DNA of 63,726 nt, the filler included, from an uncultured Acidimicrobiia bacterium (GTDB taxonomy: Bacteria; Actinomycetota; Acidimicrobiia; Spongiisociales; JAOTWH01): the NCBI GenBank assembly GCA_964347285.1. It is 7 parts of 4 records of this genome, joined end to end, with 100 filler letters (N's around TTAATTAATTAA, not from the genome) between each part and the next. Parts side by side here need not be neighbours in the genome. Positions count along the whole stretch, not along the records: positions 1 to 20,930 come from CAYFYE010000001.1; 6 more parts are not named here. One strand, given 5' to 3'. Of this stretch, positions 18,001 through 21,000 are shown one piece after another. The position numbers are program-made. Each line of letters opens with the position of its first letter. Position 1 is the stretch's first letter.

Positions 18001-21000
18001 CCAGCATGCTGGAACGGGAGCAGGAGGCGAAGCCGCTCCGTGCCTGAGCTGCCGCGTCTCGTCGTGATCACCGGCATGTCCGGTGCCGGACGGTCCCAGG
18101 CCGCCAAGTTCCTGGAAGACCTCGGCTATGGGGTGGTCGACAATCTCCCCCCTGAGTTCATCACCGATGTGGTCGCTCACGTCGATCTGGACCAGCGCCC
18201 CCGTGCCCGGCTCGCCGTGGTCGTCGACACCCGGCGCGGCCTCACCTTCGAGGAACTCGAGGACGCCCTGCGACAGCTTTCTGCTTCGGGAGTTCACACC
18301 ACGGTCCTGTTCCTCGACGCCGACGATCAGACGTTGCTGGATCGCTACTCCGAGAACCGCCGCCCCCATCCCGTCGCCGCCCCTTCGCTCTCCGAATCCA
18401 TCGCCTTGGAACGCAAAGCGCTCGAAGAACTGCGGGGCGAAGCCGACATCGTGATCGACACCACCGCCCGGACCGTCCCCGAGCTACACAAGATGCTGGA
18501 GGATGCCTTTGCCGCCGATCGCCGGGAGCGCTCCATGCAGATCTCGGTGGTGTCTTTTGGATTCAAGCGAGGCCTGCCCCGGACCCTCGACCTGCTGTTC
18601 GACGTCCGGTTCCTGCCGAATCCCTACTGGGTACCCGAGCTCCAAACCCTCACCGGACACGACCCGGCCGTACGCGACTACGTCCTCGGAAGCGAGGATG
18701 CCGCTCAGTTCATCGATCGGGCCCACGGTCTCCTGTCGTTCCTGGTGCCCCGCTACATGGCCGAGGGCAAGGCCTACCTGACCATCGGGATCGGTTGTAC
18801 CGGCGGTCAGCATCGTTCGGTGGTCATCGCCGATGAGGTGACGAAGCGGCTTCGGGAGGAGGGCTTCGACGTCAGCGTGAGCGATCGGGACGTGGCGGAG
18901 TGAGGGGGCGGCAGTGAGGCCGATGGAGACCGCCACCGATCCCTTTCTCGAGGCACTCGAGGCCGACCTCGAGGCTCCGGCGGTGACGGCATTGGGGGGC
19001 GGCCACGGCCTGGCCCGGGCCCTGGAAGCCATACAGCTGTACACATCTGACGTGTCGGCGGTCGTCAGTGTCGCCGACGACGGCGGGTCATCGGGTCGGT
19101 TGGCACCGGCTCTCGGCATACCGCCTCCGGGTGACATACGCCGCTGCCTGGTGGCGCTCACCCCCGACCAGTCCTCCTGGCGCGACCTGTTCGAGTTCCG
19201 CTTCGAGGGTGGCGATGTCGAAGGACATTCGCTCGGCAACTTCATGATCGTCGCCCTGGCGTCTCTCACCGGAGGCTTCGAAGAAGGGGTGTTGGAGGCG
19301 GAGAGGTGCCTCGGCTCGATCGGCTCGGTGATCCCCGTGGCGCTGGAGGCCATGCGGCTGCGGGCGATCATCGACGACGCCCCGGTCGAAGGGCAGCTGG
19401 CCATTGCCCGGCATCGGGGCGCACTCTCGTCGATCGAAGTCCTTCCCAAGGGGGTCGAGGGCAATCCGCGGGCGGTGGAAGCGATCCGGCGTGCCGAACA
19501 GATCGTGCTGGGGCCCGGCAGTTTGTTCACGTCGACCATCGCCACGCTTCTCGTGGACGGCATCGCCGAGGCCGTCAATGCCTCGGACGCCGTCTTGGTA
19601 TACGTCTGCAACCTGGTCACCCAGGACGGAGAGACGCTCGGCTTGGGGGCCGGCGCCCATTTGGATGCCCTGCGGGAGGTGGCCGGCATCAGGTCGCCGG
19701 ACGTAGTGGTGGCCAACCGGACCCCCATCGAAGTGCCCGAGCCTCACGAGGCCCTGCACCTCGGGGAGGACGAGATGGCCGGGCGGGTCGGCGAGCTGGT
19801 CAGCGCCGAACTGGTCGACCACACCCAAGACTGGCCGTACCACCACCCCAATCGGCTGGCGGCAGTGTTGTCGGCGCTGACCCCCGGCTGAGAGAATCTC
19901 GGGTAGCTTTGGGGGCAAATAGGGACCAGAAGGGGGCAGAGAATGGCGCATACCGTCCACGTCGTCGGCACCGGGACCATCGGCGAACCGCTCATCGGGC
20001 TTCTCGTCGATCACGCCGAGACCCTCGGGATCGATGCGGTCACCTTCCACAAGCGAACTCCTCTCGTCGACGAGCGGGGCAAGGTCAGAGACCTGATGCA
20101 ACGAGGCGCGGTTCTGGCCGTCGACGAGGACCGATGGAAGGACTTCGAGGCCCTCGGCCACACCCCCAAGCTCGAAGCACGGCAGGCGATCGAGCAGGCG
20201 TCGGTCGTCATCGATTGCACCCCGGCCGGGCTGGAGAACAAGGAGAAGATCTACCGCCGCATCGAGGGTCCGCTCGGATTCCTGGCCCAGGGTTCCGAGT
20301 ACGGCTTCGGCAAGATGTACGCCCGGGGGATAAACGACGCCGCCCTGGTCAGGGGGGACCGCTTCCTCCACATCGTTTCCTGCAATACCCACAACATCGC
20401 CGCCATCATCAAGACCCTGGCGATCGAGCCCGACGGCGTCAGCCGCCTCGAGGCGGGGCGCTTCGTGTGTATGAGGCGTGCCAACGACATCAGCCAGGAC
20501 GGGTCGTTCATTCCGGGCCCGGTCGTGGGGGACCACGATCAGCCCGACTACGGCACCCACCACGCCCGCGACGCCGCCGAGCTGTTCGCCACGGTGGGCT
20601 ACGACCTCCCGCTGTGGTCGTCGGCCGTCAAGCTGAACACCCAGTACATGCACGCCCTGTGGTTCTCGCTCCAGCTCGATCGCCCGATGGGCCTCGTCGA
20701 GGCCAAAGACCGGCTGGAAGCCAATCCGCTGGTGGCCCTCACCCACAAGCGATCCGCCAACCGGATCTTCTCGTTCGGGCGCGATCACGGCTTCTACGGG
20801 CGCATCCTCAGTCAAACCGTGGTCGTGGTGGAATCGCTGGCCGTGCGCAACGAGCGGGAGCTGGTGGGCTTCTGCTTCACCCCCCAGGACGGCAACCCAC
20901 TGCTGTCGTCGGTCGCCGCCGTGCTCTGGTNNNNNNNNNNNNNNNNNNNNNNNNNNNNNNNNNNNNNNNNNNNNTTAATTAATTAANNNNNNNNNNNNNN

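Follow-up and report, generated by a model that had tools for sequence, protein, structure and literature searches.

A probable phosphorylating GAPDH of a deep class II branch and its co-occurrence with a catalytically crippled class I twin

Gene organisation at the locus

The window, that is, the whole stretch of DNA analysed here (63,726 nucleotides), joins regions of four contigs from an uncultured Acidimicrobiia bacterium of the order Spongiisociales; the order name is that of a preliminary description, and the relatives found here carry the label Acidimicrobiia. A class II-like GAPDH gene, hereafter the target, occupies positions 19943-20998 of contig C1. Its open reading frame starts at 19943, has a full length of 351 aa and reaches a block of N's at 20930, beyond which the window holds N's and other contig regions, hence no true neighbours of the target; genes past this edge are given in C1 coordinates. 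Neighbours were named from BLAST against annotated markers and from HMM calls, because the scripted gene caller at times chose antisense ORFs.

15671..17590, + strand: uvrC (context)
17565..18047, + strand: ogt (TIGR00589 above cut-off; context)
18040..18903, + strand: rapZ (NF003828 above cut-off; context)
18914..19891, + strand: yvcK (TIGR01826 above cut-off; co-oriented, 51 bp upstream of the target; context only)
19943..20930, + strand: class II-like GAPDH gene, the target (codons 1-329 of 351; whole gene C1 19943-20998)
C1 21006-22034, just past the window edge, - strand: gap (class I), functionally relevant neighbour
C1 22031-23068, past the window edge, - strand: crippled gap twin, functionally relevant neighbour
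C1, beyond the gap twin, past the window edge, + strand: pgk, tpi and gpmA, functionally relevant neighbours

The gene order on C1 reads uvrC> ogt> rapZ> yvcK> TARGET> <gap <gap-like pgk> tpi> gpmA>. The preliminary description had placed the target in the gap-pgk-tpi locus, which is right for the region; the target lies on the strand opposite to gap, with the two genes convergent and 7 bp between them, and they are therefore not co-transcribed. A class I twin lacking the catalytic Cys lies directly upstream of the active gap, its stop codon overlapping the gap start. Together with an ordinary class II gene on contig C101, the class I gap, the twin and the target make up the four GAPDH-fold genes of the source genome. 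A promoter and terminator scan of the target locus gave nothing over chance near the target start.

Sequence models, fold and active-site residues

No Pfam model scored above its cut-off on the target (best 16 vs 24 bits), and matches to Gp_dh_N or Gp_dh_C, which mark membership of class I/E4PDH, were absent. Both NCBIfam models of class II GAPDH fell below their cut-offs as well, with 67.9 vs 185 bits for PRK04207 (NF003251) and 52.2 vs 232.9 bits for TIGR01546, in agreement with the absence of any Pfam or NCBIfam call reported earlier. The same was true of 40 distant family members, none of which passed PRK04207 (37 below the cut-off, the best at 127 vs 185 bits, and three without a match). 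A single-sequence search of the PDB gave four significant matches, all to archaeal GAPDHs (best E 4.2e-9), whereas a profile search extended to class I/E4PDH chains with E values no better than 1e-6, so that the earlier statement of exclusively archaeal PDB matches holds for the single-sequence search.

The AlphaFold model of the target (pLDDT 97.5) superposes on four archaeal GAPDHs with TM scores of 0.80-0.81 and on class I structures with 0.63-0.69, and a fold search returned Z values of 37.7 for archaeal GAPDH vs 27.3 for the next fold. The target thus has the class II fold and stands closer to the archaeal structures than to those of class I. Compared with archaeal class II GAPDH (EC 1.2.1.59; NF003251/PRK04207 and TIGR01546; 1cf2, 1b7g, 2czc and 2yyy), the target has in common the fold (rmsd 2.1 Å over 321 residues), the catalytic Cys and His, the RR and HH phosphate sites and a Lys after strand beta-2. 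It differs in showing 18-21% structural identity, and its family differs in having its own motifs (SCNTH and TPQDGN) and, among the sampled members, in being mostly bacterial. The following features were located in the coding sequence.

19967..19984, + strand: Rossmann glycine loop GxGxxG, residues 9-14 (G9, G11 and G14 in 120/120 close homologues)
20051..20053, + strand: Lys37 where strand beta-2 ends (archaeal NADP-type enzymes have Lys at the aligned position; the Asp32 of class I is absent)
20378..20389, + strand: S146-C147-N148-T149, corresponding to M. fervidus S139-C140-N141-T142 (catalytic Cys at 20381-20383)
20474..20479, + strand: R178-R179, corresponding to R167-R168, substrate-phosphate site (profile alignment; 120/120 close homologues)
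20558..20563, + strand: H206-H207, corresponding to H193-H194, phosphate site (profile alignment; 120/120 close homologues)
20651..20653, + strand: H237, corresponding to catalytic His219 (120/120 close, 66/69 distant members)

Every class II residue listed in PMC12041015 (Cys140 with Ser139/Asn141/Thr142, Arg167/168, His193/194 and His219) maps onto the target and is kept in 120/120 close homologues, and the base of the target is the class II His219 equivalent, not class I His176. The SCNT tetrad occurs in 120/120 close homologues and its Cys in 62/69 distant full-length members, while the second phosphate-site His (H207) is replaced by Gln in 25/69 distant members; residue counts and trees were made after removal of nine representatives that looked truncated or chimeric. 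These data bear out the earlier reading of an intact, divergent class II GAPDH of 351 aa with the SCNT motif, as well as the presence of SCNTHN and GTHH in 120/120 top homologues. By homology with the archaeal mechanism, Cys147 would carry the thioester and His237 would act as the base, with Arg178/179 and His206/207 forming the phosphate sites. Lys37 was aligned by profile to the Lys of 1b7g, 2yyy, 1cf2 and 2czc and is kept in 120/120 close and 59/69 distant members. According to the cofactor rule in PMC12041015, a Lys in place of Asp32 denotes the NADP type, and by this sequence proxy the cofactor of the target is most likely NADP(H).

Distribution and phylogeny of the family

Strong orthologues (63-74% identity) were found in 75/121 order genomes, source genome counted, upholding the high conservation noted before; two more weak matches among these genomes proved to be ordinary class II genes. 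No strong orthologue was found in seven other genomes of the source genome's family (70-89% complete). Across a sample of the class (n=201), strong matches were limited to the source order and to 45/47 genomes of family f16, which have ~1.1 Mb genomes with 28-37% GC in the loci read and are consistent with Ca. Actinomarinales as described in PMC7771536. The previous assignment to a bacterial subfamily of Spongiisociales proved too narrow, since members are also present in 38/151 Acidobacteriota genomes (among the matches listed), in 52/81 genomes of the Marinimicrobia phylum, in Binatia and Eisenbacteria records and, by NCBI labels, in the archaeal Heimdallarchaeota/Kariarchaeaceae, Thermoplasmata and one Methanosarcinales bin, with motifs intact. 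The target matches 708 clusters (50% identity) with E values of 0.001 or better, a number that may include ordinary class II genes. No match to the family was found in the phage collection, and the plasmid collection held ordinary type II genes and no target-family member. Many members carry the JGI label GAPDH (NAD(P)), and one Heimdall member is named GAPDH at NCBI.

In two quick trees, a long branch (SH-aLRT 99-100) stands between the family and the 5-7 rows of ordinary bacterial class II included; these trees included no ordinary archaeal row and gave long-branch warnings. The Thermoplasmata clade (53-60% identical to the target) is nested among bacterial rows, which suggests a transfer into archaea, and the Heimdall clade is placed deeper. 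Ordinary bacterial type II GAPDHs, which pass PRK04207 (Rhodococcus, Meiothermus, Paracoccus plasmids and others), belong to the class II fold family like the target, but are separated from it by this long branch. The copy in the source genome (C101:6924-8099) is 24% identical to the target and has an Asp after beta-2 where the target has Lys. While the ordinary genes are patchy and plasmid-borne, with annotations in 37 bacterial plasmid records, the target family is vertically kept. The occurrence of class II GAPDH in bacteria is already stated in PMC12041015, and ordinary type II genes are already annotated in bacteria, so the novelty lies in the branch and not in the occurrence of class II in bacteria. 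Our literature search, to which subscription papers were mostly closed, returned no paper describing the target family or the twin, in line with the preliminary description. The target is probably a phosphorylating GAPDH, on a class II branch that lies deep and has evolved separately.

Genomes in which the family is the only GAPDH found

Two single-contig order genomes from two genera, G042 and G100 (96% and 94% complete), gave no Gp_dh_C match and retain the target, pgk, tpi and gpmA. The class I pair is missing from the syntenic site, which measures 169 bp and about 279 bp, respectively, vs 2317 bp in G086. Six ~1-Mb Marinimicrobia-like genomes likewise hold the target without a class I match, and in 5/5 of those tested further (completeness not given) the family gene is the sole Gp_dh_C match and pgk is kept. 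The target family is thus the only GAPDH-like gene found in seven pgk-keeping genomes. Phosphoglycerate kinase, the pgk product, requires a partner enzyme for 1,3-bisphosphoglycerate; given this need and the lack of another GAPDH in these genomes, the target very probably has GAPDH activity. Use of the target as sole GAPDH was also considered for f16 and rejected, as most f16 genomes retain class I and the twin.

This evidence bears on whether the substrate might be another phosphorylated aldehyde or acyl phosphate, such as erythrose-4-phosphate, instead of glyceraldehyde-3-phosphate, which we regard as very improbable: the ~20% identity to characterised enzymes, the long separating branch and the several changes of substrate in the superfamily (described in PMC12041015) would allow it, but the substrate-phosphate residues are all kept, pgk genomes without another GAPDH need an enzyme for 1,3-bisphosphoglycerate, and no neighbour indicates another pathway.

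Gene contexts and the likely direction of the reaction

Placement in gluconeogenic operons had been proposed for the family. This holds in part: in several lineages the gene repeatedly lies near icl, glpX, pck or ppdK. No such operon exists in the source genome, where the target follows uvrC-ogt-rapZ-yvcK and where icl with aceB (C13) and glpX (C14) all lie off its contig. An icl gene lies on the same strand within 5.2 kb upstream of the target (as aceB-aceA) in 40/55 order genomes holding both, as indicated previously; the two are unlinked in 14 of the remaining genomes and 11 kb apart in one. The linkage is confined to families f4, f8, f11 and f12 and absent in f1, f3, f9 and f10. It comes from related families. 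The presence of icl was rejected as a predictor of the target, with 20/75 carriers having no icl match and 29 non-carriers having one. The adjacency of glpX and pck noted before was also recovered, with glpX immediately upstream of the target in 8/30 order loci and pck in 2/30. Further afield, the target is divergent from ppdK in 9/10 f16 loci, with pntB close by in 10/10, and divergent from an hprK-rapZ-ppdK block in 3/16 Acidobacteriota/f10 loci read, the three being Acidobacteriota loci; aceA lies 3' of the family gene in 4/34 related metagenome loci, and pgk precedes it in one Thermoplasmata-type locus. Neutral contexts were seen at the f9 and f10 loci and at those of Binatia and Marinimicrobia type.

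A PFK-family gene is present in 121/121 order genomes, and PFK presence was rejected as a feature separating carriers from non-carriers. The sole PFK of f10 and f16 shows a GG(D/N)D plus Lys pattern, which presumably denotes the reversible PPi-type enzyme. Archaeal class II GAPDH is described as anabolic in PMC12525153, and in H. volcanii the class II enzyme is the gluconeogenic isoenzyme, with gapII induced without glucose (PMC11023807). By analogy with these enzymes and from its neighbours, the target likely has an anabolic bias; where it is the only GAPDH of a genome, it may run reversibly in both directions. Ordinary class I seems able to do gluconeogenesis alone, given that 45/121 order genomes hold neither target nor twin and that 29 non-carriers have icl.

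A crippled class I twin accompanies the target

A profile of the Cys-less twin was searched over the 121 order genomes and found the twin in 66, with G014 (partial) and G049 (frameshifted pieces) counted. Target and twin occurred together in 65 genomes, the target only in ten, the twin only in one (G043, 84% complete) and neither in 45, such that 65/66 twin-bearing genomes hold the target; of the ten target-only genomes, six hold another class I gene and the other four gave no class I match. For the adjacent class I pair, the corresponding numbers (both, target only, pair only, neither) were 26, 26, 0 and 29 in the Marinimicrobia phylum and, among the matches listed, 14, 24, 1 (G136) and 112 in Acidobacteriota. 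Hence 26/26 Marinimicrobia-like and, among the matches listed, 14/15 Acidobacteriota genomes with the pair carry the target. Conversely, the target stands without the twin in 10/75 order, 26/52 Marinimicrobia and 24/38 Acidobacteriota carriers (the last among the matches listed, separate-tandem genomes included). Tandems in G177, G228, G252 and G161 represent a separate duplication and were excluded from the twin counts, and G123 (frameshifted pair) and G523 (pair on two contigs) were left uncounted as pairs. Unpublished genomes contribute G004 and G016 to the 75 and 65 (G016 also to the first tree), G149 to the Acidobacteriota 14 and the twin tree, and G174 to the 112; the conclusions hold without them. 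These counts are not a test, because kin are not independent and shared ancestry inflates co-occurrence.

A tree with 25 upstream partners groups them in a single clade across the three phyla (SH-aLRT 100). Among 41 twins, using the class I residue numbering of PMC12041015, Cys149 is kept in 10/41 and Arg231 in 2/41, as against 40/41 for both His176 and Asp32, while the downstream partners are intact in 25/25. Target and twin were both lost, with the class I gene kept, in G061 and G099 (f9) and in f6 and f7; in f2, in the remaining f1 genomes read and in G024, the class I gene is a different one and both twin and target are absent. Most ~1.1-Mb f16 genomes retain the target, the class I gap and the twin. 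This three-gene retention occurs despite few paralogues, Ca. Actinomarinales-type genomes having just 29-48 (PMC7771536, Table 1). What is new here is the tight tie between the target family and a class I twin with a crippled catalytic site. Its asymmetry, in which the twin implies the target and not the reverse, fits class I with its twin being unable to do the job that the target supplies.

A proposed two-enzyme arrangement

Two-isoenzyme systems are known in B. subtilis (GapA/GapB) and in cyanobacteria or plants (GAPDH-CP12). Another is that of GAPDH I and GAPDH II in H. volcanii (PMC11023807). In all of these, a catabolic NAD enzyme is paired with an anabolic NADP enzyme and a switch between them, and a similar pairing is proposed for the target. 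On balance, we consider it probable that the target is an NADP(H)-preferring anabolic GAPDH forming one arm of a two-enzyme arrangement with class I. Its main job would be the reductive conversion of 1,3-bisphosphoglycerate to glyceraldehyde-3-phosphate with NADPH in gluconeogenesis, in cells using acetate, fatty acids or pyruvate for growth. The second arm would be the NAD-type class I GAPDH, whose gene is accompanied by that of a twin missing Cys149 and/or Arg231 and keeping the NAD-site Asp. If NAD and NADP enzymes worked at the same time, NADPH would be lost to NADH, and one of them therefore needs gating. The known systems are switched by transcription factors or by the small protein CP12, whereas the candidate switch here is a crippled paralogue of class I, of full length and encoded in tandem with gap. 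Presumably coupled in translation to gap, and with its NAD-site Asp kept, the twin is a candidate gate that would co-assemble with class I into a mixed tetramer and thereby prevent an NADPH-wasting futile cycle between both enzymes. Gating of class I by the twin is proposed tentatively.

The strongest competitor, which we consider rather unlikely, is that the target is a general reversible housekeeping GAPDH and that class I and the twin are a separate matter, their co-occurrence stemming from shared inheritance or lifestyle. Such a role would accommodate the seven pgk-keeping genomes with the target as sole GAPDH candidate, those tested among them retaining a PFK-family gene, together with the neutral neighbourhoods of several lineages and the many genomes having the target without the twin. 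It sits poorly with the directional neighbours, all of them anabolic (icl/aceB, glpX, pck and ppdK), with the GG(D/N)D plus Lys pattern in the only PFK of f10 and f16, and with a twin that nearly never occurs without the target in three phyla and is lost jointly with it in f9. A mainly oxidative role, in which the target would make NADPH by oxidising triose phosphate and NAD-linked flux would be left to the class I pair, could draw on the NADP-type Lys37 and on retention of the target alongside class I in ~1.1-Mb genomes; it is improbable given the anabolic gene neighbours, the anabolic function of characterised class II enzymes (PMC12525153 and PMC11023807) and the transhydrogenase gene near the target in f16.

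Extending the two-enzyme arrangement further, it is possible, if doubtful, that a third major branch of phosphorylating GAPDHs, found in uncultured bacteria, Thermoplasmata and Heimdallarchaeota, forms in bacteria the anabolic half of an undescribed switch, in which class I and its NAD(H)-binding pseudoenzyme twin would make a mixed tetramer that leaves class I shut off or one-way while the target carries gluconeogenesis, a three-gene system kept even in ~1.1-Mb ocean genomes.

Implications

GAPDHs are commonly viewed as two classes split along the line between bacteria and archaea. A large third branch has been missed by curated models, and metabolic reconstructions consequently undercount it. 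We take UBA5794 to be Spongiisociales. Of the 98 UBA5794 genomes in one study, about 14 were scored for K00150 (PMC12008989, supplement row), vs the 75/121 found here. As the target is the only GAPDH in some streamlined marine genomes, gluconeogenesis would look broken there without it. The Heimdallarchaeal members bear on the history of GAPDH near the origin of eukaryotes. The tie to a pseudoenzyme offers a testable idea for how NAD- and NADP-linked GAPDHs may be kept from short-circuiting each other, and hints at an undescribed switch between sugar burning and sugar building.

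GAPDH paralogues of this genome and of related bacteria

Besides the class II-like GAPDH, the genome carries a class I twin, a crippled paralogue upstream of the ordinary gap, and an ordinary class II gene that passes the curated PRK04207 model; the latter is the fourth GAPDH-fold gene of this genome and shares 24% identity with the class II-like GAPDH.

Contig C1 22031-23068 (locus L001:8035-9069), minus strand, beyond the window: crippled class I twin of gap
Contig C101 (locus L032:6924-8099): ordinary class II (PRK04207-type) GAPDH
Genome G088, locus L218:7363-9772: divergent ordinary class II GAPDH adjoining a second pgk
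Loci L237, L239 and L385-L388 (genomes G205, G162, G144, G229, G241, G265): long-branch class I variant
Loci L235, L236, L380 and L381 (genomes G252, G161, G177, G228): independent gap tandem duplication

Both the catalytic Cys149 and Arg231 are missing from the twin, the stop codon of which overlaps the gap start, and its closest Atlas clusters bear the name E4P dehydrogenase. Twins from Acidimicrobiia, Marinimicrobia and Acidobacteriota form a single clade. Genome G088, which holds the class II-like gene and no class I match, also encodes the divergent ordinary class II GAPDH listed here. The class I gene adjoining pgk in six Acidobacteriota genomes with the class II-like GAPDH is a long-branch variant with the motifs TSCTTH and VHCYN. 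A second, independent tandem duplication of gap, with a divergent downstream copy, was observed in four further genomes.

Gene neighbourhoods and other genes of this genome

In about 40 Acidimicrobiia loci, an 84-aa ORF lies after the class II-like gene and before rimO-cinA-thpR-recA; no match was returned in a Pfam/NCBIfam scan of this ORF. A RamB-like XRE regulator, scoring far under the RamB cut-off, is divergent from aceB, aceA and the class II-like gene in about 30 loci. In genome family f16 (~1.1-Mb genomes), the distance between pntB and the class II-like gene is no more than about 6 kb in 10 of 10 loci.

Locus L047:9487-9738: 84-aa ORF
Locus L090:1456-2901: RamB-like XRE regulator
Window 22435-23577, minus strand: S-adenosylmethionine synthetase (Pfam PF01941)
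Window about 24239-27158, minus strand: three ORFs
Contig C2 60585-62761, this genome: two tandem PFK-family genes

The window joins end pieces of contigs C1, C2 and C3 to the complete contig C48, separated by stretches of N; the genes beyond 20930 (window 20931-45184) are no neighbours of the class II-like GAPDH. They include the PF01941 synthetase, presumably an archaeal-type family here in a bacterium, and three ORFs that we take to resemble the pntA/pntB transhydrogenase subunits. One of the tandem PFK-family genes has GGDG and the other GGDD, which we assume to mark the ATP and PPi types, respectively; genome family f10 retains only the second (GGDD) kind.

Unusual members of the class II-like family

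One family gene (G502:C14:143960-145021, locus L454) contains three in-frame TGA codons; the gene may be disrupted, the sequence may be in error, or the organism may use a different genetic code. The catalytic Cys is lost in P0158, P0163, P0173, P0227 and P0266, and also in P0126 and P0193. Five Cys-less members form one clade, two being labelled Myxococcota/Deltaproteobacteria, and this clade represents a putative second lineage of GAPDH pseudoenzymes.
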